Assembly (NCBI GenBank): GCA_937868485.1
Contig: CALMML010000123.1
Location: 1 to 21,717 of the forward strand
Length of the DNA: 21,717 nt
Origin: an uncultured Myxococcales bacterium
GTDB lineage: Bacteria > Myxococcota_A > Polyangia > Palsa-1104 > JAEUJZ01
Direction of reading: 5' to 3'
Shown: positions 1,356 through 21,696 of the stretch, piece by piece
Layout: each line of letters begins with the position of its first letter
Numbering within the stretch: position 1 is the first letter of the stretch
Translations under genes and position numbers: made by a program
The notes under the pieces: model-generated
What the model was told of the DNA's origin: nothing
Database searches by the model: none
Seen by the model: only the letters and a program-made list of their open reading frames with translations

Positions 1356-2933
1356 CTACTCGCGAGCGTAGGCGTGACGCGCCAGCAAAAGGACGCCGAG
1401 CAGGTCGCGGTCAGACAGCGGACGTACCGCGTGGATGAGGCGTCGGACCTGGGCATCGGCAAAGAGCAGGACTGCACCCTGCGGGTCACGCGCTGTGACC
1501 GCTTGCTCGACCTGCGTGGGGGAAAAGGGCAGCTTGCGGGCGGCGTAAAGGACCGGCAGACCGACGGCGCTGCTGTCCACCACCAGGATGTCGGCAAAGA
1601 CTTGGGCGGCGGACTGGGCGATTCGCTGGGCGAGCGGCTCAGACAGCGCTTCACACAGGCTGAGCGACACCACGCCACCTGGGGTGAGGTGCTCGGCGAC
1701 CTGACGATAGAACGTCGGGGTGTGCAGCAGCGCGGTGGCAATCCGATACGGTGCAGGGACATCGAGCACGATGAGGTCGAAGCGCTCGGTGCTGTGGGCC
1801 AGCGCATGTCGCGCATCATCCAGGGTCAGCGTGATGTCGTGGGGCGACAGGCGATGGACGCTGGCGAAGTGAGCAAAGCCCAGCGAGGCGACGCGGGCAT
1901 CCAGCTCGATCACCTGGACGCGATAGCCCAGGCGGTGCAAGCGGGCCGCCGAAGAGAAGCTGCCACTGCCGACCACCAGCGCGTGGCCGCGTGTCGGTCG
2001 CATCGCTCCGGGGACTTCGGCCAGCAGGACGGAAAAGGCATCGAGTGATCCCGAGCGATAGAACGGCACGCCATCGAGAAACAAGGCCGTCTCTGCGTCA
2101 TCCCGAACGACATCAATGCGCTGATGGGGGGAGTAGTCGCTGGCGAGAAGCTGCGGAGACTTGATCCCATGGACGTGCCGGAAATAGGCAGCTGTGACGT
2201 GCTGGTCGAGGTGTGAGCCAAGGCCGATGAGCGTCGCCGACCCGAGCAGTGTTCCCAGCGCCACCTTCCGACCGTAGCGAAGCAGGGCCATGACGACCGG
2301 CACAAGTAGATAGCCTGCGCGCAGCAGCTGGTAGGACGGCCCAAGCGCGATGCCGACCAGGAAGATCAGGGCTCCGGCCAGCTCTGCGGCATACAAGCGG
2401 GGCAGCGAGTCGGTCTTGGCGTACAGCGGCAGCAGCACCGCGCAGTATCCGCACGGGATCGTGATGAGCACGGTGGCCAGGATGAGGGCCCAAGCTGGAT
2501 GGGCTGTGCTGAGTGCAGCGCTGAGGGCTCGGATGCTCCAGGGGAGGGTTGCGTGCGCAAGGAACGCGACGGCGGCCCACAGGTGTTCGATGCTGCCACC
2601 AAGCGTTAGGCGGCTACCGAGCGCGTAGCCCAGGCTGGGACCCAGCAGCGTGATGAGCGTGGCGAGCAGCAGCGACAGCTCAGTGACAAAGAACGTCGAG
2701 CCCAGCTCTCGCGAGGCGACGTACTGACAGGCGAACAGGGCTGCACCACCGCTGGCCAGCACGGCGGACGCTAGGAACCCGCGTGGGAGAGACAGGGGAA
2801 GACGCAAAGCCGACGGCACAGCAGCTTTGCAGCGTAGCACAGGCGCTGCGCCTGGCTTGCCCGAAACTGTGCAGCTAGCGGGGCTGTCCGTAGAACGTGC
2901 CGCGACCGTTGGTGCCGATGTAGACGCGACCAA
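1356..2933 (-). CDS. Membrane-anchored spermidine-synthase-like (PABS / class I AdoMet-MTase fold) protein. The N-terminal ~220 aa is polytopic membrane domain and the C-terminal part is a Rossmann-like domain. The true start is probably downstream of the listed ATG.
   Basis: C-terminal domain ...RGHALVVGSGSFSSAARLHRLGYRVQVIELDARVASLGFAHF...FDLIVLDVPAPY...LTPGGVVSLSL matches the spermidine/spermine synthase-like fold. The glycine motif is VVGSGSF rather than canonical GGGDGG, so the function may differ. The N-terminus has multiple hydrophobic helices. The listed start overlaps the upstream gene by 59 nt and the first ~40 residues are low-complexity, so an internal TTG/GTG start is likely. Confidence 0.6.
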   Translation of the reverse strand: MVASTSAPTVAARSTDSPASCTVSGKPGAAPVLRCKAAVPSALRLPLSLPRGFLASAVLASGGAALFACQYVASRELGSTFFVTELSLLLATLITLLGPSLGYALGSRLTLGGSIEHLWAAVAFLAHATLPWSIRALSAALSTAHPAWALILATVLITIPCGYCAVLLPLYAKTDSLPRLYAAELAGALIFLVGIALGPSYQLLRAGYLLVPVVMALLRYGRKVALGTLLGSATLIGLGSHLDQHVTAAYFRHVHGIKSPQLLASDYSPHQRIDVVRDDAETALFLDGVPFYRSGSLDAFSVLLAEVPGAMRPTRGHALVVGSGSFSSAARLHRLGYRVQVIELDARVASLGFAHFASVHRLSPHDITLTLDDARHALAHSTERFDLIVLDVPAPYRIATALLHTPTFYRQVAEHLTPGGVVSLSLCEALSEPLAQRIAQSAAQVFADILVVDSSAVGLPVLYAARKLPFSPTQVEQAVTARDPQGAVLLFADAQVRRLIHAVRPLSDRDLLGVLLLARHAYARE

Positions 2934-5103
2934 AGACGCGCGGGTCGGCTTCCATCACCATCGCTTGGTCGCCGATGGGCTGGCTGGGGCTGTCGATGCG
3001 CAGGTAGGTGAGGCCCAGGTCTTCACTGCGGAAGATGCCGGGGACGCCGCCGATGATGCCGTAGACAAACAGGGTGGACTGGCTGCTGCCGGGGGCGGGA
3101 CGACCGAGCGCAAAGAGCTGGCAGTGGTCGATGCCTGCGACCTTGTGGAACGACAGTCCGGCGTCATCGGATCGAAACAGGCCGTTTTCGGCCAGGCAGA
3201 CAAAGACCTGTCCGCGCACGCCCGGTGTGGTCTTGACGGAGGGTCCGGGCTGTCCGCTGCGGGTGTCAAAGGGGGGCGCGGGAAGCTGGGCGGTCTGCTG
3301 GAAGTGCTGTCCGCCATCGCTGCTGACGTAAAACGCACCTTGAAGGAACAGATAGAACAGGGCGGAAGAGGTGCGGTCGGACGCGAGCGGATGGGTGTAG
3401 TCCCAGCGGTCGGAGATGGCGTTTTTGGGGGCACCTTGGCTGGGCTTCCAGGTCTTGCCGCCATCACTGGTGAAGGAGGGGATCGCGTTTTGCGGGACCC
3501 ACACCGCACGCTGACAGTCGCTGCCAGCCAAGACGATGCGGCCATTTTTGGCCTTGGCAAAGGGCAGGGTGGCAAAGCGGACAAAGGAAGCGGCTCCATC
3601 TTCGGATCGCGCACCTCGGAATGGACCGCCGCGCTCTTCGCCGACGCGCATGACGACGCTGGGGTTTGCCTCGCAGAAGTCGAGCCCGGTGGTGTCGCCG
3701 TCTTCGCCCTTGGGTCCGATCATGCGGGTCTTGGGATACGCGTCGAGATCTTCATGGCGAAAGCCATCGACATCAGCCACGCCGCTGAGCAGAGGCACCC
3801 CGGCTGGGGGACTGCGCAGGACAAACGGCTCGACTTCCTCATGGCCAGCTTGCAGGGTGGACCACGAGGAGGGCACTTGGTAGACGTCGTTGGTCTTCCA
3901 GGTTCCGTAGTAGTCGGTCAGAAACACCCGACTGGGCCGGTGCGGATCGATGAGCAGCGAGGATGTGTGTCCGGTAAAGAAGCGCTGCGGCCACCACGGA
4001 ACCTCTGCTTGACGCACGAGGGCGAGCGGCTGCCAGGATTTGCCTCGGTCGTGGCTTTCAAACAGCGGGGTCGGAAAGACATCGCTGGCGGGGGCGACGA
4101 GCAGGTGGCCCGGATCGCTTGGATCGACGCTGATTCCGCCATAGTCGTAGCGGGTCTTGCTGGTCGGCGTGATGCGGAACCAGCGGTCGGCTTGCAGCTT
4201 GTAGACGCCGCCAGGCTGGGTCTTGTCGCCGACCGACGTGACATAGAGCACGCCATCGGTGGCGAGAGCGGCGCGCTGTGGGCTACGCGGGAAGGGTCCG
4301 CTGCCAAGCCTGGCCCAGGTGACGCCTGCGTCTTGGCTGCGGAAGATGCCTTCGCCTGCGACGCCGACAAACAGGACCTGGCTCGGCTGGCCGCTCAGGC
4401 TGCTTTTGCCGTCGAATAAGACAAACGAAAGACCCAGCTCGGCGGTGCCGGTTGCGGGGAAGGACGCGACGCGAGAAAAGTGCTGGCCTTCATCGTCGCT
4501 CTTCCACAGACCATCGGTGCGTGAGCCGTAGTAGAGGATCTTGGGCTGGCTTGGATCGATGGCCAGGCGCTCTCCGACCCAGCGGAAGTTTTCGTTGCCA
4601 CCGATGGGGACGGGGAGTCCGAGCTTGCGCCACACGGTGCCGCCGTCTTCGGAGCGGTACAGACCCGAGGGCTGCGAAAGCCACGGACGCGGCAGGTACT
4701 TTCCCAGCGCGGCGTAGAGGATCTGCGGGTTTTCGGGATGGAGCGCGACGCTTTCGACGCCGTACAGGTGCCAGTCCTGGCGGGGAAAGGAGTCAAGGAG
4801 CGGCACCCAGCGCTGCGCGGTGGTGTTCCATTTGTACAGGCCGCCGACATCGGTGCGAATGTAGATCTGGTCGGGGACCTTGGGATGGATGACGATGCCG
4901 GTGACGTAGCCGCCGCCGCCCACCACGACAGAGCGCCAGGAGTAGTCGGCTGCGGGGGCCGTCCCATTGGCTTCGGGTCGCCGGGCTGTGGGCTGAGTGG
5001 GCAGCGCTGCGCAGCTTGCGACAAAGGGAGCCAGCAGCAGGACGGAGCCGCGTGCGCGGTGAAGACGCAGTCGATGCGGAGCCTTCGGCGAGGAGACTGT
5101 CAT
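2875..5103 (-). CDS. BNR/Asp-box repeat beta-propeller lipoprotein, GH74 (xyloglucanase/sialidase-like) family, 742 aa.
   Basis: At least nine S-x-D-x-G-x-T/S-W/F Asp-box motifs (SEDGGTVW, SDDEGQHF, SQDAGVTW, SHDRGKSW, SEDGAASF, SDGGKTW, SDGGQHF, SDDAGLSF, SEDLGLTY). The N-terminal WRSVVVGGGGYVTGIVIHP is typical of GH74. The signal peptide carries the lipobox FVAS|C. Confidence 0.7.
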   Translation of the reverse strand: MTVSSPKAPHRLRLHRARGSVLLLAPFVASCAALPTQPTARRPEANGTAPAADYSWRSVVVGGGGYVTGIVIHPKVPDQIYIRTDVGGLYKWNTTAQRWVPLLDSFPRQDWHLYGVESVALHPENPQILYAALGKYLPRPWLSQPSGLYRSEDGGTVWRKLGLPVPIGGNENFRWVGERLAIDPSQPKILYYGSRTDGLWKSDDEGQHFSRVASFPATGTAELGLSFVLFDGKSSLSGQPSQVLFVGVAGEGIFRSQDAGVTWARLGSGPFPRSPQRAALATDGVLYVTSVGDKTQPGGVYKLQADRWFRITPTSKTRYDYGGISVDPSDPGHLLVAPASDVFPTPLFESHDRGKSWQPLALVRQAEVPWWPQRFFTGHTSSLLIDPHRPSRVFLTDYYGTWKTNDVYQVPSSWSTLQAGHEEVEPFVLRSPPAGVPLLSGVADVDGFRHEDLDAYPKTRMIGPKGEDGDTTGLDFCEANPSVVMRVGEERGGPFRGARSEDGAASFVRFATLPFAKAKNGRIVLAGSDCQRAVWVPQNAIPSFTSDGGKTWKPSQGAPKNAISDRWDYTHPLASDRTSSALFYLFLQGAFYVSSDGGQHFQQTAQLPAPPFDTRSGQPGPSVKTTPGVRGQVFVCLAENGLFRSDDAGLSFHKVAGIDHCQLFALGRPAPGSSQSTLFVYGIIGGVPGIFRSEDLGLTYLRIDSPSQPIGDQAMVMEADPRVFGRVYIGTNGRGTFYGQPR

Positions 5104-5154: not shown

Positions 5155-6453
5155 CTAGGCGAGCTTGTAGAGCTGGACGGGGGCTTCTCGGCCTTTGACG
5201 GTTGCCGGAGGGAGCTTTTCAGCGGGAAACCGACCGGACGGTAGCTGAGCGATGACGGCGTCGCTGGCGAGGAGCTGGGCGGCGTGGACTTTGGTGAGCT
5301 GCTCAATGCGTGAGGCCAGGTTCACGGTGTCGCCGATGACGGTGTACTCCCTTCGTAACGAGGAGCCAACGCTGCCGGTGATGACATCGCCTGCGTGTAG
5401 ACCGATGCCGATGCGCGTGGGAGGGATCTGACCTGCGTGCGCCAGCTGGTTGACCTCTGAAATCAAGTCAAGCGCGGCCTGGACGGCGGACAGGCAGTGG
5501 TTTTCGGAAGGAAGGGGGGCTCCGAAGATGGCCAAGAAGCCGTCGCCCAGGAACTTGTTGATGATGCCGCCATGGCGGTCTACGACGGCGACCAGCGGCG
5601 CAAACAGGGTGTTTAGGAAGGCGACCACTTCGCTTGGGGTTCGGGACTCTGCAAAGCGGGTGAAGTCGCGAATGTCCAAAAACAGAACGCAGACCGGACG
5701 CAGCTCTGTGATCTGTCCGGCTTGCTCTTGCAGCAGTCGCTCTGCCACTTGGGGAGAGACATGCTGTCCGAACATGGCCATGGTGCGGTCCCGCTCGACC
5801 ACGACTTCGGCGGCGCGGATGACGCGGCGGCGCAGATCATGGCTGATGGTGGCGGCCCCGAGTCCGCTGATGGCCAGGATTCCGCTGCGCAGATAGATCG
5901 GAAAGGGAGACAGAAACAGAGAGAGGGATCCGGTGCTGGGCGTTTGCAGCAAGGCCTGGGCGAGTGCGACATACTGCGCAGCTGCGATCAGGGCAACGAA
6001 CACAGAGACACGCGCATCCAGTCGCAGAATCGACACCATGATCACGACCAGATAGAGCAGTACAGGGGGCGCGCTGAGCGCGAAGGCTGGATTGGAGACG
6101 CGCGCGATCAGAAACAGCACGAGCGAGATGCCGCTGACCTCTACCACCGAGTTGATGATCAGGAACAGACGCGGCAGACCCTGCTTGCGCTTGATCTTGC
6201 GATGCACAAAAAGGAGTGACAGCCAGCAGTAGACAGCGGCGAGCGCACTGCTCAAGCTGATGAGCGGACTGATGGGAAGGAAGGCTCCGCTTTGAACCTT
6301 GGGCGCTCCCGAGGTGAGGAACAGATACACCACCAGCGTCAGCAGAAAGCCGATGCTAAAGCCGCCGGCCATCAGCGTGGCGCGGAGTCGCTCTGCTTGC
6401 ACATATTCCAGGGCAAGCTGATCTTCGAGCGCGCGCTGCTGACTGTGATCCAT
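5155..6453 (-). CDS. Membrane-bound class III adenylate/guanylate cyclase (6 predicted TM helices plus a C-terminal CYTH-less cyclase homology domain), ~432 aa. The start has been re-set to the ATG at 6453..6451.
   Basis: Cyclase domain motifs VLFLDIRDFTRFAE, GDGFLAIFGAP, IGIGLHAGDVITGSVGS and EYTVIGDTVNLASRIE. The N-terminus after MDHSQQ... has six hydrophobic segments. The ORF-track N-terminal extension (6454..7047) is Arg/Pro-rich nonsense and overlaps the divergent EF-hand gene. Confidence 0.75.
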   Translation of the reverse strand: MDHSQQRALEDQLALEYVQAERLRATLMAGGFSIGFLLTLVVYLFLTSGAPKVQSGAFLPISPLISLSSALAAVYCWLSLLFVHRKIKRKQGLPRLFLIINSVVEVSGISLVLFLIARVSNPAFALSAPPVLLYLVVIMVSILRLDARVSVFVALIAAAQYVALAQALLQTPSTGSLSLFLSPFPIYLRSGILAISGLGAATISHDLRRRVIRAAEVVVERDRTMAMFGQHVSPQVAERLLQEQAGQITELRPVCVLFLDIRDFTRFAESRTPSEVVAFLNTLFAPLVAVVDRHGGIINKFLGDGFLAIFGAPLPSENHCLSAVQAALDLISEVNQLAHAGQIPPTRIGIGLHAGDVITGSVGSSLRREYTVIGDTVNLASRIEQLTKVHAAQLLASDAVIAQLPSGRFPAEKLPPATVKGREAPVQLYKLA

Positions 6454-6636
6454 GACCCATGATAACGGCAGGGGCAGCGGGCAGGGAATCGGACGGACGG
6501 GCTCTGCATGCGTGTCGGTGCTGCGCACAGGTGTGCTGTCAGGTGCGGAAGCTCGTACGGTGTCGGCGCATGCTGGGGGCGCCGGTAGACAAGCCGACAA
6601 AACGCGGAGAAAATGGTGGGTCTTGGGAGGGACTGA
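6454..6636. promoter_or_regulatory. Divergent intergenic promoter region between the cyclase gene (-) and the EF-hand gene (+). It contains the palindrome GCACAG/GTGTGC (6525-6536) and the direct repeat GTGTCGGnGC...CGCA (6512-6529 / 6559-6572).
   Basis: A 183-nt non-coding gap between divergent start codons. The repeats and palindrome were seen directly. The SD GGGAGGG lies 5 nt before the ATG at 6637. Confidence 0.3.
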
Positions 6637-7203
6637 ATGGAACAGTCGACGCTTTCTGCGCCGTTGGTTCGTAAGTTTTCCGCGCTGTTTGCACGCTGTG
6701 ATCGAAACGGAGACGGTGTGCTGTCCGAAGAAGACTTCCGCGCACAGGCGCAGCACATTCAACAGATCTTCGGCTGGGCGGATGATGACAGACGGACGAA
6801 GCGTCTGTTTGCGGATCGAGGGGAGCTGTTCCACCGACTGGTTTCCGGGGCCGACAAAGACCGCAGTGGAACGGTGTCTCTGCCAGAGTTTCTGCGCTAC
6901 TTCGAGCGGCAGATCGTGGTGTTCCGCGCAGCCGGGGCAGCGTCTCCCTGGCTTCTGTCTTCGTGTCGCGATCTGATCGACCTGATTGATCAGGACAACA
7001 GTGGGTCCATCTGCGCAGAGGAGTTTGCCAAGCTGCTGTCCGCACAAGGATCGAGCGCGGATGCGGCGACGCTGTTTGGGAAGCTGGATCGGAACGGAGA
7101 TGGTCGGCTGACGCTGGATGAGCTGCTGGCGCTGTCGTTTGAGTTTATGACAAGCGATGATCCACAGGCGCCAGGCAACCAGTTCTTTTGCGGGGACTTC
7201 TAG
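6637..7203 (+). CDS. Calmodulin-like Ca2+-binding protein with four canonical EF-hand loops, 188 aa, cytoplasmic (no signal peptide).
   Basis: Four 12-residue loops: DRNGDGVLSEED, DKDRSGTVSLPE, DQDNSGSICAEE and DRNGDGRLTLDE. A strong SD GGGAGGG sits upstream of the ATG. Confidence 0.75.
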   Translation: MEQSTLSAPLVRKFSALFARCDRNGDGVLSEEDFRAQAQHIQQIFGWADDDRRTKRLFADRGELFHRLVSGADKDRSGTVSLPEFLRYFERQIVVFRAAGAASPWLLSSCRDLIDLIDQDNSGSICAEEFAKLLSAQGSSADAATLFGKLDRNGDGRLTLDELLALSFEFMTSDDPQAPGNQFFCGDF

Positions 7204-17020: not shown

Positions 17021-18178
17021 ATGGAAGATGCCCTTTCAGCCTTGAAAACGGAATTCCGCAACCGAGGCTGGAACCAACGCCCGGTTGGACCTGTTGTCTT
17101 TGAGCTCGCGATTCATGTCAGCTTGGCGCTGTCAGGGATTGCGATCTTTGTGCTGTGCGAGCCGTGGTGGCTGCGTGCGCTTGGCATGCTGATTTCGACG
17201 TACGGATCCGTCGGAGTCGGCACCAACACGCACACTGCAACGCACTACGCAGCGAGCCGCCATCGCTGGGTCAATGAAGTGCTGACGCACTTCGGCTACC
17301 CGTTTTTCTTGATGCTCGGTGCAACATTTTGGCGACATCGTCACATCACGCTGCACCACGCAAATCCCAACGTGATGGGGATCGATCAAGATGCGGACTT
17401 CACTCCGTTCTTTGCGAGCACGGAGCTGGAAGTCGCACGAGGAGCCGGTCTGTTTCGTCGCCATCAGCGCTATGTGTTTCCGTGCATCGCGTGGCTGAAC
17501 AGCTATCTGCGCCAGGTGGGAAGCTGGCGTCATCTGTTTCGGATCCTGCCCGACAAACAGAGACGGAAGACCGCACACTTTGTCGATGCCGCCGTGATGC
17601 TGCTGCACATCGTGGTGTGGTTTGTGATTCCTTCTCTGTACTTTCCGGTGCTTAGCGTGATCGGCTTCAACCTGCTGCGGATCGGACTGCTCGGCTATCC
17701 GCTGTACTTTGTGCTGGCCCCTGGTCACTATCCCGAAGAGGCGCTCTGTGTGGCGAAGGGAGACTGGAAAAAGGACTTCGTTCTGCAGCAGACAGCGACG
17801 ACGATCAACTACCGAACCGGGTTCTTTGGCGCGCTGATGTGCTCTGGTCTTCAGTACCAGATCGAGCATCACCTGTTCCCGGGTTACAGCCACATCTACT
17901 ACGCGAAGATGGCTCCGCTTGTGGAAGCGTACTGCATTCAGCATGGCTATCCCTATCGGATGTATGGCTGGACAGAGTCTGTCCTCAAGACGTTCGAGAT
18001 CTTTTCCAAGCCCAAGCATGTCTATGCCGATGTCGAGGAGCTGCGCGAAGCGGTTCGCCAAGAGCTTGCGCAGAAAGCACTGCCGAGTCGTCTGCCGCGC
18101 GAGCACAAGGTCGCAGTGTCCGCACTGGCGGATGGTCCCGCGCTGGCCGGACTGGGCGAAGAGTCTCAGTCCGTTTAG
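17021..18178 (+). CDS. Front-end-type membrane fatty-acid (acyl-lipid) desaturase, 385 aa, without a cytochrome b5 fusion.
   Basis: Three His boxes: HTATHY (HxxxH), HRHITLHH (HxxxxxHH) and the QIEHHLFP box diagnostic of front-end (delta4/5/6-type) desaturases. There are multiple TM helices. No HPGG cytochrome b5 motif is present. Confidence 0.75.
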   Translation: MEDALSALKTEFRNRGWNQRPVGPVVFELAIHVSLALSGIAIFVLCEPWWLRALGMLISTYGSVGVGTNTHTATHYAASRHRWVNEVLTHFGYPFFLMLGATFWRHRHITLHHANPNVMGIDQDADFTPFFASTELEVARGAGLFRRHQRYVFPCIAWLNSYLRQVGSWRHLFRILPDKQRRKTAHFVDAAVMLLHIVVWFVIPSLYFPVLSVIGFNLLRIGLLGYPLYFVLAPGHYPEEALCVAKGDWKKDFVLQQTATTINYRTGFFGALMCSGLQYQIEHHLFPGYSHIYYAKMAPLVEAYCIQHGYPYRMYGWTESVLKTFEIFSKPKHVYADVEELREAVRQELAQKALPSRLPREHKVAVSALADGPALAGLGEESQSV

Positions 18179-18353
18179 CGGCACAGCGGAGCACAGACTC
18201 CGCGTGCGACTTCGGCGTATCCCGTCCTTGTCCGTTCCTTCCCCCCAAAATAAGTACGTTTGACCAGCGATTCTGCGGCTGCCCGTTGACGAAGCGGAGC
18301 TTCTAGGGCAACCTGCGCGGCCACACAAACCTGCTTACTTACAGGAGATTCCT

Positions 18354-18779
18354 ATGGCTGACGAGACGACGCTGCTTCTTCTCAAACCGGACTGCATCAG
18401 CAAGAACCTCGCGGGTGAGGTCATCCGCCGTCTGCAAGCGCAAGGCTTCCGCCTGCGTGGCTGCAAGATGATTCAGCTCACCGACGACGTGCTCAAGGAA
18501 CACTACGCGCACATCGCCAGCAAGCCGTTCTTCCCGGAAGTGGCGGGCTTTATGAAGAGCAAGCCGGTGATTGCGCTCGCGGTGGCCGGTGACAACGTGA
18601 TCTCGCAGGTTCGTGATCTGCTGGGCCCGACGGACAGCAAGGCCGCTGCCAAAGGCACGATCCGTGGCGACTTCGGTGAAGACAAGATGGTGAACATGGT
18701 TCACGCGTCCGATTCTCCCGAGGCGGCTGCCGTCGAGCTTACCCGCTTCTTCAAAGCCGGCGAGCTGTTCGCGCTGTAG
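18354..18779 (+). CDS. ndk: Nucleoside diphosphate kinase, 141 aa.
   Basis: LLLKPDC, GFRL, HYAHIASKPFFPEV, GTIRGDFG and the active-site context NMVHASDS. The SD ACAGGAGA lies upstream of the ATG. Confidence 0.85.
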   Translation: MADETTLLLLKPDCISKNLAGEVIRRLQAQGFRLRGCKMIQLTDDVLKEHYAHIASKPFFPEVAGFMKSKPVIALAVAGDNVISQVRDLLGPTDSKAAAKGTIRGDFGEDKMVNMVHASDSPEAAAVELTRFFKAGELFAL

Positions 18780-18788
18780 TCCGCCCGT

Positions 18789-18807
18789 CGCCCCACTTCC
18801 TGGGGCG
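18789..18807 (+). terminator. Candidate intrinsic terminator downstream of ndk: CGCCCCA-CTTCC-TGGGGCG hairpin followed by GCTGCTTTCCTTTC.
   Basis: A 7-bp GC-rich stem and 5-nt loop were seen 10 nt after the stop. The downstream tract is T/C-rich but not a clean poly-U. Confidence 0.3.
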
Positions 18808-19079
18808 GCTGCTTTCCTTTCATCCGTTCCTGCTCTCGTTCCTTCCTTTTCTGCGTTCTTTCCTTCGCGCTGTACCTTCCGAACGGAACCGATGCTCGCG
18901 GGTCGATCCATCGACTGCGCCACACGGCGGCTGATTTTGCCCTTGCGTAGCGAGTCTGTTTCGGATAGACGGTATCCACATAAACACCGGTTATCGAGGT
19001 GCGCAGTCGTCCATTTTGATTCGAGTGCTACTGCGTTCGATCCATGTGACAAGCTGGATCCTATCATTTGCTTAGATTC

Positions 19080-19093
19080 TGCATAAATATGCA
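19080..19093. promoter_or_regulatory. Operator-like palindrome TGCATA-AA-TATGCA in a ~300-nt AT-rich island upstream of the reductase/sulfotransferase gene pair.
   Basis: Perfect 6-bp arms were seen directly, ~175 nt upstream of ATG 19268. The surrounding 18960-19260 is markedly AT-rich relative to the window. Confidence 0.25.
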
Positions 19094-19267
19094 ATGAAGC
19101 TGCTTTTGTCGCGCAATGTTCGCCAGGCTGAATCAGCAAAATTTTTCGATACAGGTGATAAATAAATACAGAATTGGCCTTGGTTTTCGCTCTCTGTGTG
19201 GATAAAGTTTTGATGTCGTGTTGAACACCACAGCGAACCACTTGCTTATCGGATCAAGGATCTGGCA

Positions 19268-20404
19268 ATGACATCGACCCATCTGGTGACTGGCGCAACA
19301 GGTTTTGTGGGCTCTGCTCTTGTGCTGGAGCTGCTTTCGCGGACAAAGGATCAGATCGTCTGCATCGTGCGACCCGGTCAAGTGGATGCAGCGACGCGCC
19401 TACAAAGCGCACTGCTGTCTGCCGCTGAGAGCTACGGTCTGCTGGAACGCCTGCGACGAGACATCTTTGAGCGCTGTCGTGCCGTCGCTGGTGATGTCGA
19501 GCAGCCCGATTGTGGCGTCGCGTCCCCGGAGCAGCTGACCTGCGATCAATTTTGGCATAGCGCCGCTTCGCTTCGCTTTGAAGATCGCTATGCGGCAGAG
19601 ATTACGCGGGTCAATGTACAAGGAACTGCGCATGCACTCGATCTGGCTGCCAAGGTGGGTGCTTCACAGTTTCATTACATTAGCACTGCGTATGTTGCTG
19701 GCTCGGACGAAGGACCGATCTTAGAGCAGAAGTCGAGCAGCGTACGGCGAAATAACTATTATGAAATAAGCAAAGCGCAAGCGGAAGAACTGGTGGAAGC
19801 TGATACGCGCTTTGGACGACGCATCTTTCGACCGAGCATTGTGATCGGTCACAGCCGTACGCTGGGCGCAACCAACTTCACAGGAATGTACGGATTTTTG
19901 CGTAAGCTGGAAGTCTTTCATGGACTGATGCAGCGTACGCAAGCCGGACTGATGCAGCGAAAGGCCCTGCGACTGCGGCTGGATGTCGGAGCGCAGCTTG
20001 ATCTGGTTCCGATTGATCGCGTGGTCGAAAACGCGGTCACGATTGCGCTGTCGGGTCGCTTGTCCGCAGGTGAGCTGGCCTACTTTCACCTGACCAACCC
20101 GCATGCACCGATCATGGAACAAGTGATCGCGACGATGTTTGATGTGGTGGGTCTGGCGGCTCCCGTGTTTGCGAGCGACAAGAGCGAGTTTGACTGGATC
20201 GACGACAAGTTCAACGAGCGCATCGACTTCTATCGATCCTATCTGATCGGACACAAGGTCTTCGATCGCTCCCAGGTGGCGCGCATCGTCGGGGATGAGC
20301 CGCGCAAGCCCTACGAGCTGCCGAATCACATCGTCGAACAGCACTGTCGCTGGTATCTGGATCGACTGAAACAGGAGCGCGCCGGACTTCCTGCTACGCG
20401 CTGA
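19268..20404 (+). CDS. Stand-alone thioester-reductase domain protein (NAD_binding_4 / fatty acyl-CoA-ACP reductase-like SDR), 378 aa.
   Basis: N-terminal Rossmann VTGATGFVGSALV. The motifs ...FHYISTAYVAG... and YYEISKAQAE (YxxxK) are typical of terminal reductase / male-sterility FAR domains. Confidence 0.7.
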   Translation: MTSTHLVTGATGFVGSALVLELLSRTKDQIVCIVRPGQVDAATRLQSALLSAAESYGLLERLRRDIFERCRAVAGDVEQPDCGVASPEQLTCDQFWHSAASLRFEDRYAAEITRVNVQGTAHALDLAAKVGASQFHYISTAYVAGSDEGPILEQKSSSVRRNNYYEISKAQAEELVEADTRFGRRIFRPSIVIGHSRTLGATNFTGMYGFLRKLEVFHGLMQRTQAGLMQRKALRLRLDVGAQLDLVPIDRVVENAVTIALSGRLSAGELAYFHLTNPHAPIMEQVIATMFDVVGLAAPVFASDKSEFDWIDDKFNERIDFYRSYLIGHKVFDRSQVARIVGDEPRKPYELPNHIVEQHCRWYLDRLKQERAGLPATR

Positions 20405-20483
20405 GGCATTGCGGCGCAGACTCATCCCAGACACCTCTTTGTTGCTTCGCGACAATGCGTACAGACTCTTGTAGGAATCTGCC

Positions 20484-21551
20484 ATGATCGATCAAGTCTT
20501 CGTTGTCGGAACAGGACGCTGCGGCTCGACGCTGATATCGAACATCCTGCGCCTTCATCCGCGCATCGCGAGCATCTCTGAGTTCTTTTCCTTCATCACC
20601 GATCTGGGCTGTCAGGTGTCTACCGCGTTTCCTTCCCATGAAGTGGACGGAGTGTGGCTGTGGCGGCTGATCTCGACGGCGTGGCCGCGTCAGAACCTGA
20701 TGATTCGCCACGATGTGGCGATGGATGAAGTGCTGTATCCGTTTCAAGGTGGTGGCGCGCATCGCTTTGATCGCAACAGTGGAGTTCCTGCGATCTCTCA
20801 GGTGACGCTGCCGCATCTTTCGGGCGAGCCGGACGCGCTGCTCGATGAGCTGGAGCCGCTGGTCTGTGCGCTTCCCAACGGAACGCCAGGCACGCTGTTT
20901 GCGCAGCTCTTTGAGCTGCTCGCCGTCCGTCAAGGCAGTGATGTCTGGGTTGAGCGCTCAGGAGGAAGTCTGCGCATCGCACATCGGCTGATCGAACACT
21001 TTCCGCGCGCGCGCTTCGTTCACATTGTTCGCGATGGTCGTGATGTCGCGCTGTCGATGAGCAAGCATCACGGCTTCAAGATGGTCCTGATCTGCTTTCA
21101 GCTACTGGAAACGCTGGGAGTCGATCCCTTTGTGTCGATGGAGCGTCGCTGGGAAGAAGACATGTCGGATGACCTGGCGTCGCTTCTTCCAGAGACCTTT
21201 TCCCGCGAGGCGTTCTTGGATTTTTCGACGCCGCCGCCGCTGTGTGGTCACTACTGGTCGGGAGAGATTCTGGAAGGTCTGAGCACGCTCGATTCCCTTC
21301 CGAAAGACAGGCTGCTGACGCTGCGCTATGAAGACTTTCTGACCGATCCCGCGCAGACCATCTCTCGGCTGATTCGCTACATCCTTCCCGCAGATCCTGG
21401 CGATGAAGCTGCGTTTGTGCGTCGCGCATCCAGCCTGTTGCGTGCTCCGTCTACGCGCTGGATTCACAGTGAAGAAAAGGCTCGTCTTCAGCTCGAAGAT
21501 GCTTGTCAGCCTGGGTTTTCATCACTGTCTGCACGCGGTCTACAGTGGTAG
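20484..21551 (+). CDS. PAPS-dependent sulfotransferase family protein, 355 aa.
   Basis: The 5'-PSB-like P-loop VVGTGRCGSTL at the N-terminus and the 3'-PB-like FVHIVRDGRDVALSM motif. The gene is 79 nt downstream of the reductase gene on the same strand, so the two are probably co-transcribed. Confidence 0.7.
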   Translation: MIDQVFVVGTGRCGSTLISNILRLHPRIASISEFFSFITDLGCQVSTAFPSHEVDGVWLWRLISTAWPRQNLMIRHDVAMDEVLYPFQGGGAHRFDRNSGVPAISQVTLPHLSGEPDALLDELEPLVCALPNGTPGTLFAQLFELLAVRQGSDVWVERSGGSLRIAHRLIEHFPRARFVHIVRDGRDVALSMSKHHGFKMVLICFQLLETLGVDPFVSMERRWEEDMSDDLASLLPETFSREAFLDFSTPPPLCGHYWSGEILEGLSTLDSLPKDRLLTLRYEDFLTDPAQTISRLIRYILPADPGDEAAFVRRASSLLRAPSTRWIHSEEKARLQLEDACQPGFSSLSARGLQW

Positions 21552-21597: not shown

Positions 21598-21696
21598 GGA
21601 ATCGGTTCGGAATCGAGTAGGAATCGGTTAGGAATTGATCAGGAATTGATCAGGAATCGAGTAGGAATCGAATAGGAATCGGTGAGGAATCGCGCG
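21598..21696. repeat. Nine tandem copies of an 11-bp unit GGAAT(C/T)G(A/G)nnn (consensus GGAATCGAGTA), with an inverted copy CGATTCC at 21571-21577.
   Basis: Units counted directly: ggaatcggttc, ggaatcgagta, ggaatcggtta, ggaattgatca, ggaattgatca, ggaatcgagta, ggaatcgaata, ggaatcggtga, ggaatcgcgcg. The array starts 47 nt after the sulfotransferase stop codon. Confidence 0.8.

Follow-up and report, generated by a model that had tools for sequence, protein, structure and literature searches.

The window analysed here, a 21,717-nucleotide stretch of a contig from an uncultured Myxococcales bacterium, carries a two-gene operon in which a stand-alone thioester-reductase/FAR-type extended SDR (19268-20404, forward strand) is followed by a PAPS-type sulfotransferase (ST; 20484-21551, forward strand). 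We propose that this operon encodes a two-step pathway from an acyl thioester via a primary alcohol to a sulfate ester (an alkyl sulfate), a reading to which we assign a probability of about one in two. In the first step, the reductase would use NAD(P)H to convert an acyl-ACP or acyl-CoA, most likely bearing a fatty acyl chain from primary metabolism, to an aldehyde and then to a primary alcohol; in the second, the ST would move the sulfuryl group of PAPS to the hydroxyl, yielding a primary sulfate ester and PAP. The two genes are kept together in at least eight bacterial phyla, and their probable product is a sulfate ester not characterised before, for example an alkyl sulfate. The same core logic had been put forward in the initial annotation for a sulfated lipid: the conserved unit and the enzyme classes stand, and that the product is a lipid is a prediction.

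The coupling of the two genes is apparent from their inheritance. At all 54 genome loci away from a contig edge whose ST is 44-81% identical to that of the window, the gene immediately preceding the ST on the same strand is a reductase; loci of the ST clade that run into the end of a contig are not counted. The 23 loci with more distant STs lack the reductase, and in a neighbour-joining tree the 57 STs that have a linked reductase group into a single clade containing no solo ST. Further, the pairwise distances of the two proteins correlate (Mantel r 0.90, a value reached by 0 of 999 permutations), establishing that they co-evolve; look-ups starting from the reductase found an adjoining ST in four of four cases. 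The intergenic gap has a median of 8 nt, with overlaps at 15 of the 57 loci; in the window it measures 79 nt, as originally described, and a terminator scan found no terminator-like site in this spacer. Since the two genes stay side by side in different phyla, the objection that the two genes might adjoin here without being linked elsewhere falls away. Natural fusions of the two in the same order also exist (P0447 and P0450), with the reductase and ST parts of such proteins respectively 26% and 34% identical to the window proteins, alongside fusions of STs to P450 and di-iron enzymes.

The class of the reductase (378 aa) is defined by its Pfam match to NAD_binding_4 (E 6e-42); TIGR01746 and PRK07201 also match, both below their curated cut-offs. 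Alignments of its relatives reveal the NAD(P)-binding motif TGATGFVG, an invariant Arg35 and the catalytic residues S139-T140, Y165 and K169. The best structural matches of its AlphaFold model (pLDDT 92) are the terminal R domain of MxaA (27% identity, TM about 0.7), the CpkC thioreductase, the rice fatty acyl reductase DPW, and R domains of NRPSs and CARs; at the sequence level as well, it matches fatty acyl reductases and four-electron R domains. Its fold, its NAD(P)-binding motif, its Thr/Tyr/Lys catalytic residues and its C-terminal substrate subdomain are all held in common with the terminal R domains of the PKS/NRPS proteins MxaA, CpkC and Mycobacterium tuberculosis Nrp and with the fatty acyl-CoA/ACP reductases (rice DPW and the N-terminal half of PRK07201/FcrA-type enzymes). 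It differs in standing alone, with neither a carrier-protein nor an adenylation domain in cis. Whether such an enzyme carries out a two-electron or a four-electron reduction is not readable from sequence (bioRxiv 10.1101/2023.05.23.541938), and the alcohol is a presumed intermediate of the proposed pathway.

Homologues of the reductase are often annotated publicly as ‘nucleoside-diphosphate-sugar epimerase’, it shows weaker Pfam matches to Epimerase, GDP_Man_Dehyd and Polysacc_synt_2, and a UDP-GlcNAc 2-epimerase gene neighbours the pair at one locus (L176). These could indicate a nucleotide-sugar epimerase, dehydratase or reductase, with the ST sulfating a capsular, lipopolysaccharide or glycolipid carbohydrate. 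We regard this as very improbable: NAD_binding_4 leads the Pfam matches by about 20 orders of magnitude, and the structural ranking places sugar epimerases below thioester reductases, whose match includes the C-terminal subdomain. Moreover, our neighbourhood survey found no glycosyltransferase or polysaccharide-export genes conserved with the pair, and the ST is no closer to carbohydrate STs than to others.

The ST (355 aa) belongs to the Sulfotransfer_3 family (Pfam E 2e-21; Sulfotransfer_1, E 6e-11). Its PAPS-binding signature is complete, and alignments show a P-loop (G9-T-G-R12-C-G-S15-T16), an S32-E33 pair, the motif R183-D-G-R-D...S191 and the family motif H256-Y-W-S-G-E261. The best fold matches of its AlphaFold model (pLDDT 88) are the CurM ST, TPST, an Alicyclobacillus ST, retinol dehydratase, the Ols ST, Stf9 and Stf1, with LGS1 also in the list, and a profile search against PDB sequences recovers the same group. 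The nearest solved relatives are the polyketide/fatty-acyl STs CurM and Ols, with the protein tyrosine STs scoring equally and all of them distant (identity 12-16%, TM 0.4-0.55, large insertions). In both these groups, the P-loop has an Arg in place of Lys, as does the window ST, which also shares their 3'-phosphate-binding Arg and Ser; one Glu of the Ols ST aligns with a Glu of the window ST. The window ST differs in lying outside any PKS module and in having no thioesterase after it, and no gene for a peptide substrate is conserved alongside it. As for the concern that the ST might group with carbohydrate or protein STs, the former is not borne out, but the latter is not dispelled by the scores.

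The affinity to CurM and Ols, seen in both sequence and fold, and the presence in the fold list of retinol dehydratase and LGS1, where sulfation drives elimination or cyclisation, raise the alternative that the ST acts first. It would then sulfate a beta-hydroxyacyl-ACP and the reductase would release the chain, with the sulfate serving as leaving group and the product being an unsaturated aldehyde, alcohol or hydrocarbon; an ACP gene that comes after the ST in Terriglobia also speaks for it. We consider this order of events improbable. The resemblance is remote and is matched in score by TPSTs, which have no activating role; the ACP is missing from most loci; fatty-acid synthesis already supplies 2-enoyl intermediates; and the dedicated PAPS-supply and PAP-removal genes and anion transporter found beside the pair are at least equally consistent with a sulfated end product.

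The closest published precedent for the two-step pathway is SwfB, a fused reductase-ST protein of the swf cluster of sponge symbionts and Poribacteria, for which an alkyl sulfate was proposed as product in 2013 (Della Sala et al., PMC3908369); the combination is hence not entirely unprecedented, and our literature search found no experimental test of the SwfB product. SwfB, which we liken to the window pair by its published description and domain order, and the reductase-ST di-domain that ends coccidian type I fatty acid synthases both place the thioester reductase before the ST, as in the window. The fused proteins P0447 and P0450 reproduce the SwfB layout with an ST of the window’s family, whereas the window has two separate genes. 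The B12-radical-SAM partner SwfC is mirrored by a B12-radical-SAM gene in Terriglobia versions of the pair; no SwfA-type PKS/FAS or radical-SAM gene occurs in the window or the 10 kb downstream. A comparable operon logic, with a terminal lipid hydroxyl made by one enzyme and then sulfated, is seen in the Cyp128-Stf3 system for sulfomenaquinone in M. tuberculosis (PMC7404182), where the hydroxyl comes from P450 hydroxylation rather than, as proposed here, thioester reduction. This parallel extends to paralogues of the window ST, which adjoin P450 genes or are fused to P450. The chlorosulfolipids of chrysophyte algae are natural alkyl sulfates derived from a fatty acid via reduction and then sulfation. 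Likewise, the fatty alcohol disulfates of Entamoeba are natural alkyl sulfates formed from a fatty acid by reduction and PAPS-dependent sulfation, the latter by SULT-type enzymes (PMC6801973). Both are eukaryotic, unlike the window pair, and the likeness is one of chemistry.

In other genomes, further genes join the core: an oxygenase of the membrane di-iron, R2-like di-iron or P450 type, an ACP with a B12-radical-SAM enzyme, a BASS-family anion transporter, or PAPS-supply genes. One locus (L173) has the order cysD-cysNC-cysQ-reductase-ST in a single operon, and at another (L049) the gene just before the reductase encodes an APS kinase, a context that supports the PAPS dependence of the ST. 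At three loci (L051, L054 and L064), genes resembling the ether-lipid genes elbD/elbE (PMC9131029) lie directly upstream of the pair, and a long-chain acyl-CoA synthetase adjoins it at a fourth (L022). These, together with the ACP genes of six Terriglobia loci and the acyl-CoA-synthetase or SCP2 domains fused to more distant relatives of the reductase, make a lipid substrate plausible.

Other neighbours would likewise suit a product that is smaller, soluble and anionic. At 12-13 loci the gene immediately downstream of the ST encodes a BASS/SBF (Na+/bile-acid-type) transporter; for the recurrent di-iron partner, the closest match is GntB, a hydroxylase of free arginine. Scattered genes related to amino-acid metabolism (AstE/AspA, DapD-like, ATP-grasp, GCS2) occur beside the pair, and a Streptomyces relative of the reductase belongs to a cluster of aryl/amino-acid-like character that includes a chorismate-binding enzyme. 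The same chemistry might act instead on an acyl-CoA or acyl-ACP whose acyl part is small, polar or specialised, for example short-chain, hydroxy-, dicarboxylic or derived from an amino acid. Its product would be a soluble sulfated metabolite, such as an osmolyte, a signal or the precursor of a toxin, carried by the BASS transporter. We hold this to be possible, if on the unlikely side: the GntB match, at about 110-119 bits, is far under the cut-off of 380; no acyl-activating enzyme suited to an unusual acid accompanies the pair in a conserved way; none of the amino-acid-type neighbours is present at more than two loci; and the interpretable neighbours and fusions are of lipid type. Against the two-step lipid reading itself weigh the BASS transporter, the GntB-like partner and these amino-acid-type neighbours, the ST-less reductase relatives of Micromonospora and Streptomyces (40-47% identity), the low similarity of the ST to its solved relatives, protein tyrosine STs included, and the window operon having no ACP, acyl-activating enzyme or lipid gene.

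The initial annotation had joined to the pair a front-end desaturase (17021-18178, forward strand; Pfam FA_desaturase, E 3e-28), correctly described as having QIEHH as its third His box and, with a single Pfam domain, no cytochrome b5. All three reading frames are found at the positions given, and the desaturase is on the same strand, 1.1 kb upstream of the pair; other FA_desaturase-superfamily enzymes directly follow the ST at 11 loci. However, a complete ndk gene (18354-18779; Pfam E 1.5e-45) and a terminator-like hairpin, both previously overlooked, stand between the desaturase and the reductase. Only in L013, the closest relative, does a close desaturase homologue adjoin the pair, in a syntenic position; the single other homologue, at L070, is weak and on the opposite strand. 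The desaturase also lacks significant BLASTP similarity to the di-iron enzymes recurring beside the pair (E 0.096). With ndk and the terminator in between, and synteny limited to L013, the desaturase lies outside the reductase-ST unit, and a three-gene module making an unsaturated sulfated lipid is very improbable.

On its upstream side, the unit is bounded by the hairpin (18787-18809, forward strand; a 9-bp stem with seven G-C pairs and TGCTTTCCTT after it). The non-coding leader beyond the hairpin (18810-19267, forward strand) is the presumed promoter region of the pair; it contains no ACP-like small ORF. It had been described as an AT-rich control region with a perfect palindrome, and the former holds, with 44% G+C in the last 317 nt before the reductase against 61% in the window. 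The palindrome, AAAATTTT (19138-19145), is the only perfect one of at least 8 nt in the 488-nt upstream region, but shuffles of that region contain 1.7 on average, and it falls in a stretch that does not align with L013, an 81%-identical relative; it is no more than expected by chance. A consensus scan found no sigma-70-like promoter upstream of the pair, and no Rfam element was found there. A leader block at about 18932-18985 is conserved with L013, as is the ribosome-binding site AAGGA (19256-19260, forward strand), 7 nt before the reductase ATG; a second site, AGGA (20473-20476, forward strand), precedes the ST ATG by 7 nt.

The thioester reductase and the PAPS-type sulfotransferase (ST) encoded side by side on the forward strand of the window (19268-20404 and 20484-21551) form a conserved unit that is real, far beyond chance and uncharacterised. 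In agreement with the initial annotation, both the ORFs and their Pfam classes point to a stand-alone reductase of 378 aa (NAD_binding_4, E 6e-42), followed after a gap of 79 nt, and in a different reading frame, by an ST of 355 aa (Sulfotransfer_3, E 2e-21; Sulfotransfer_1, E 6e-11). A scan with an ST profile, restricted to one genome per species, recovered 80 loci, which bear out the predicted co-occurrence of the two genes: a reductase homologue (38-81% identity) lies immediately 5' and on the same strand in 54 of 54 non-contig-edge loci whose ST is 44-81% identical to that of the window, versus 0 of 23 loci whose STs are more distant (36-44% identical). In a neighbour-joining tree, for which the pair labels were based on tblastn results, the 57 reductase-linked STs and two contig-edge cases constitute one clade, albeit one with a short stem in a tree without bootstrap, and all 24 solo STs fall outside it. 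Pairwise distances among the STs correlate with those among the reductases (Mantel r 0.90, a value reached by 0 of 999 permutations), and therefore the two genes have travelled together. The intergenic gap has a median of 8 nt, with overlaps in 15 of 57 loci, and such short gaps and overlaps are typical of translational coupling.

The carriers of the pair are found in the Myxococcota, Gammaproteobacteria, Alphaproteobacteria and Acidimicrobiales, the Betaproteobacteria (four Nitrotoga, Nitrosomonas and Burkholderiales), the Chloroflexota (Ktedonobacteraceae and Chloroflexia), the Acidobacteriota (Terriglobia) and the Bacteroidota (Chryseolinea and Flavilitoribacter). They include cultured organisms, viz., Plesiocystis pacifica SIR-1, Enhygromyxa salina DSM 15201, Sorangium sp. 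So ce726, Flavilitoribacter nigricans DSM 23189 and Methylocucumis oryzae Sn10-6. Look-ups that started from the reductase, with homologues down to 38% identity, found an adjoining ST in four of four cases. A metagenome scan using the reductase profile with generic back-translated patterns gave only relatives of ≤33% identity, and the lack of a nearby ST in all 80 of these speaks to specificity rather than to the reverse association among orthologues. This reverse association, from reductase to ST, is not absolute: a Micromonospora relative (47% identity) is fused to a Pyr_redox_2 domain and has no ST nearby, and neither does a Streptomyces homologue (40%), which is clustered with genes for an ACP, for AMP-binding enzymes and for an enzyme that binds chorismate.

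The reductase matches PF07993 (NAD_binding_4) over residues 7-254 with 144 bits against a cut-off of 20.1, its Pfam matches to epimerases and 3-beta-HSDs being far weaker. Alignment of 18-20 orthologues revealed an invariant dinucleotide-binding motif of the TGxxGxxG type (TGATGFVG; T8, G9, T11, G12 and G15), an invariant Arg35 and an equally invariant Ser/Thr-Tyr-Lys catalytic triad (S139-T140, Y165 and K169). Its AlphaFold model (pLDDT 92) comes closest in fold to the terminal R domain of MxaA, the myxalamid synthase (27% identity, E 2e-20, TM ~0.7), and other top matches are the CpkC thioreductase, the rice fatty acyl reductase DPW and the R domains of NRPSs and carboxylic acid reductases. 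The match to the R domains includes the C-terminal subdomain, and nucleotide-sugar epimerases rank below them, at ~1e-16. The closest curated models score well under their thresholds (TIGR01746, 106.6 bits versus 213; PRK07201, 118.7 versus 549). Judging from these comparisons, the reductase belongs to the thioester-reductase/FAR (NAD_binding_4, extended SDR) superfamily, outside any curated family, and represents a new subfamily. A reading of this protein as a 3-beta-HSD acting on sterols or hopanoids was rejected in favour of NAD_binding_4 and the R-domain folds, to which it corresponds much more closely.

The ST matches PF13469 (Sulfotransfer_3) with 77.6 bits against a cut-off of 27. Across 15 sequences, the 5'-phosphosulfate-binding P-loop (G9-T-G-R12-C-G-S15-T16) and the 3'-phosphate-binding R183 and S191 are invariant, along with S32-E33, the R183-DGRD...S191 motif and a family motif, HYWSGE. 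The AlphaFold model (pLDDT 88) recovers sulfotransferase-fold proteins in 20 of 20 fold matches at E ≤ 0.001; the matches include the CurM and Ols STs, the protein tyrosine sulfotransferase TPST, an Alicyclobacillus ST, retinol dehydratase, Stf9 and Stf1, with TM values of just 0.4-0.55. The protein adopts a sulfotransferase fold and forms a distant, distinct subfamily. Its profile also matches the Ols ST, TPST1/2 and the CurM ST at E ~1e-8; the P-loop aligns with that of the Ols ST, and the invariant E33 with a Glu of the Ols ST, at the presumed position of the catalytic base in the CurM and Ols STs and TPST. In keeping with these matches, the ST could conceivably have a CurM-like activating role; however, the CurM and Ols STs sit within a PKS module, after the ACP and before the thioesterase, whereas the ST here is a stand-alone gene with neither a PKS nor a thioesterase adjoining. 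A main role as a tyrosine or peptide sulfotransferase was likewise considered and set aside: its constant partner is a thioester reductase, and the conserved neighbours include neither a precursor peptide nor an NRPS.

Gene context supports PAPS as the putative sulfuryl donor. In the metagenomic relative L173, cysD, cysNC and cysQ lie directly 5' of the reductase and ST genes in one tight operon (L173:4381-10207), which would make this operon self-sufficient in activating sulfate, transferring it and removing PAP. In another relative, L049, an APS kinase gene lies directly 5' of the reductase.

The coupling of the two activities extends to gene fusions. An exhaustive ST-profile search of 1.84 billion cluster representatives returned 407 clusters (50% identity) at E ≤ 1e-30, and among the best 150 of these are two reductase-ST fusions, P0447 (769 aa) and P0450 (750 aa), both with NAD_binding_4 at the N-terminus and the ST at the C-terminus. 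P0447 is 26% identical to the window reductase (E 3e-15) and, over the full length, 34% identical to the window ST (E 2e-45). A search with a concatenated reductase and ST profile had yielded no such fusion, the exhaustive representative search being the one that did. The same best 150 clusters hold P450-ST fusions in both orders and one 1,607-aa protein combining ST, cNMP-binding, ferredoxin-reductase and P450 domains; in another relative, P0241 (locus L177), the reductase precedes an ST that is joined to a di-iron domain of the R2-like type. More generally, the ST family follows a pattern in which a hydroxyl-generating enzyme (thioester reductase, P450 or di-iron oxygenase) is combined with an ST in an operon or a fusion. 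Among more distant relatives of the reductase are fusions with domains of the acyl-CoA-synthetase type, SCP2 or alpha/beta-hydrolases. Paralogues of the ST fused to or adjoining a cytochrome P450 (the proteins P0395, P0370, P0385 and P0497 and the loci L069, L077 and L084) resemble the cyp128-stf3 arrangement of M. tuberculosis, which follows a hydroxylate-then-sulfate logic (PMC7404182).

About 60 pair loci were examined for accessory genes by searching the ORFs of all six frames with HMMs, checking against Pfam and NCBIfam and calling ORFs by codon position. Directly 3' of the ST, 11 of these loci code for a membrane di-iron enzyme of the FA_desaturase superfamily, which among curated families is closest to the arginine hydroxylase GntB, albeit far under the cut-off, and 12-13 for an SBF/BASS transporter. 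A long-chain acyl-CoA synthetase gene adjoins the pair in one locus (L022); in Nitrotoga, such a gene is a few kb distant. In three loci, elbE-like and elbD-like genes, the latter coding for FAR-AMP-ACP-acyltransferase, are found directly 5' of the pair; this elbD domain order is that described for the Myxococcus ether-lipid operon (PMC9131029). Six Terriglobia loci have a 100-aa ACP, and of these five also have a P450, three a B12-radical-SAM enzyme and one an FAD halogenase. The Terriglobia pairs are embedded in larger clusters (L068:12705-14414, with neighbours in L056, L060 and L062) that contain between them an ACP, a B12-radical-SAM enzyme, a GntB-like di-iron enzyme and a P450, the FAD-dependent halogenase being that of L068. 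Such clusters suggest elaborated, possibly halogenated, sulfated products.

We searched the full-text literature for experiments on reductase-ST pairs of bacteria and found none. The nearest described system is SwfB of sponge symbionts, a fused thioester reductase-ST encoded in the swf cluster beside a type I PKS/FAS and a B12-radical-SAM enzyme, whose authors proposed an alkyl sulfate product, pointed out that such alkyl sulfates escape the standard lipid work-up and noted the same reductase-ST di-domain at the end of coccidian fatty acid synthases (PMC3908369). As compared with the description of SwfB, the window pair is similarly contiguous with the reductase first, but its activities are split over two ORFs rather than joined in one polypeptide. 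Moreover, neither the window nor the 10 kb downstream contains a SwfA-type mono-modular PKS/FAS or a SwfC B12-radical-SAM gene; among the relatives, only those of Terriglobia have a B12-radical-SAM gene and an ACP beside the pair. In contrast to swf, which comes from sponge symbionts, the window-type pair is widespread in free-living bacteria. It would be a version of the predicted reductase-ST module previously proposed for SwfB.

The initial annotation had seen in the reductase and ST the core of a sulfated-lipid pathway, a logic that the conserved linkage, the fusions and the gene context support, with the product itself being what we infer. The simplest reading of the conserved core would have three stages, from thioester to alcohol to sulfate: the reductase would convert an acyl thioester to a primary alcohol, and the ST would then sulfate that alcohol with PAPS, while optional oxygenases, methylases and transporters would modify or move the sulfated product. 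Whether such enzymes carry out a two-electron reduction, stopping at the aldehyde, or a four-electron one is not predictable from sequence (bioRxiv 10.1101/2023.05.23.541938). A fatty acyl substrate is favoured for the reductase because most loci are without a dedicated activating enzyme, because the strong conservation across phyla suggests a common metabolite and because the interpretable neighbours and fusions are of lipid type. The BASS transporter and the GntB-like enzyme in pair loci nevertheless leave room for a smaller anionic product instead of a lipid.

Returning to the fatty acyl substrate, we propose, at odds of roughly one in three, that the cassette is the basis of overlooked bacterial primary alkyl sulfates, i.e., SDS-like anionic lipids that bacteria of at least eight phyla would derive from ordinary fatty acyl thioesters. 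Their producers would include nitrifiers (Nitrotoga and Nitrosomonas), myxobacteria, Acidobacteriota and Chloroflexota, and the lipids would have been missed because analysis based on saponification and FAMEs does not detect them. The fatty alcohol disulfates of Entamoeba establish that such products exist in nature, with the alcohol-forming enzyme still unknown (PMC6801973). More speculatively, in the genomes where elbD and elbE precede the pair, the alkyl sulfate could act as the activated donor of the alkyl group when ether lipids are formed; in myxobacteria, this step has yet to be explained (PMC9131029). If the prediction of the pathway is right, many bacteria of environmental importance would use a compact two-gene cassette to make sulfate-ester lipids or metabolites, and attention would be drawn to a class of lipids that goes unnoticed in routine lipidomics. 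The SwfB-type reductase-ST proteins of sponge symbionts and of coccidian fatty acid synthases, long without an explanation, would gain a function, and enzymes would become available for producing biosurfactant alkyl sulfates.

The upstream desaturase (17021-18178, +; 385 aa; Pfam FA_desaturase, E 3e-28) does lack a cytochrome b5 domain and does have QIEHH for its third His box, as originally described, but its inclusion in the same module does not hold: it is a neighbour, not a component, of the reductase-ST unit. A complete ndk gene absent from the initial annotation (18354-18779; Pfam E 1.5e-45) and, 3' of it, a terminator-like hairpin (18787-18809) intervene, and thus the pair is a separate unit with its own 458-nt leader (18810-19267). 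A close homologue of the desaturase occurs beside the pair only in L013, a Myxococcales MAG that is the closest distinct genome (ST and reductase each 81% identical to those of the window), and a weak one on the opposite strand in L070; nor is it significantly similar to the di-iron enzymes that recur as partners of the pair (E 0.096). The unit in the window genome comprises exactly two genes, 3' of which lie a convergent gene for a 417-aa protein without a Pfam match and then metal-efflux genes. The pair proteins recur with identical sequence in wastewater and activated-sludge metagenome contigs and in the MAGs GCA_009612795.1 and GCA_046351615.1; together with the closeness of L013, this assigns the window to an uncultured member of the Myxococcota.

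As to the AT-rich control region with a perfect palindrome that had been proposed for the pair, the first part stands, with the last 317 nt of the leader having a G+C content of 44% versus 61% window-wide, but the palindrome as a control element does not. The sole perfect palindrome of at least 8 nt in the leader, AAAATTTT, is at chance level, with shuffled sequence averaging 1.7 such palindromes, and alignment of the upstream regions showed that it is not kept in L013. Scans of the upstream region found no promoter consensus, inverted repeats or Rfam families. An AAGGA ribosome-binding site upstream of the reductase is common to the window and L013. A non-coding block at ~18932-18985, 5' of the reductase, is also kept in L013 while the leader around it has diverged; it has no Rfam match and is a candidate regulatory site.

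Just 3' of the ST stop, the convergent intergenic region contains an 11-nt tandem repeat (21598-21692; consensus GGAATCGATTA, 8.6 copies, 82% matches), whose period approximates one turn of the DNA helix. Its copy number varies among strains that are >99% identical, L004 being one unit shorter and L003 one unit longer, and it is not present in L013. Between the trypsin-like protease and desaturase genes, there is a strain-level deletion or insertion: a 1,073-bp segment holding most of a gene for a 448-aa WD40 beta-propeller protein is missing at ~16265 of the window, as well as from L001, L002 and L004, and is present in the otherwise 99.5%-identical contigs L003 (4709-5781), L005 and L006. 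Further upstream, a 977-aa protein (7207-10140, -) with MVP_shoulder (E 1e-18), Vault_3 and Vault_4 domains is a bacterial homologue of the Major Vault Protein, which forms the eukaryotic vault particle. Tandem paralogues (10312-12042 and 12211-13884, both -), 56% identical to each other, code for Cys-rich proteins of ~560-575 aa without a Pfam match, the second of which begins with a lipoprotein-like signal when translated. A BNR/sortilin-repeat protein (2875-5103) adjoins a 630-aa protein (5155-7047, -) with a C-terminal adenylate/guanylate cyclase domain (E 9e-27).
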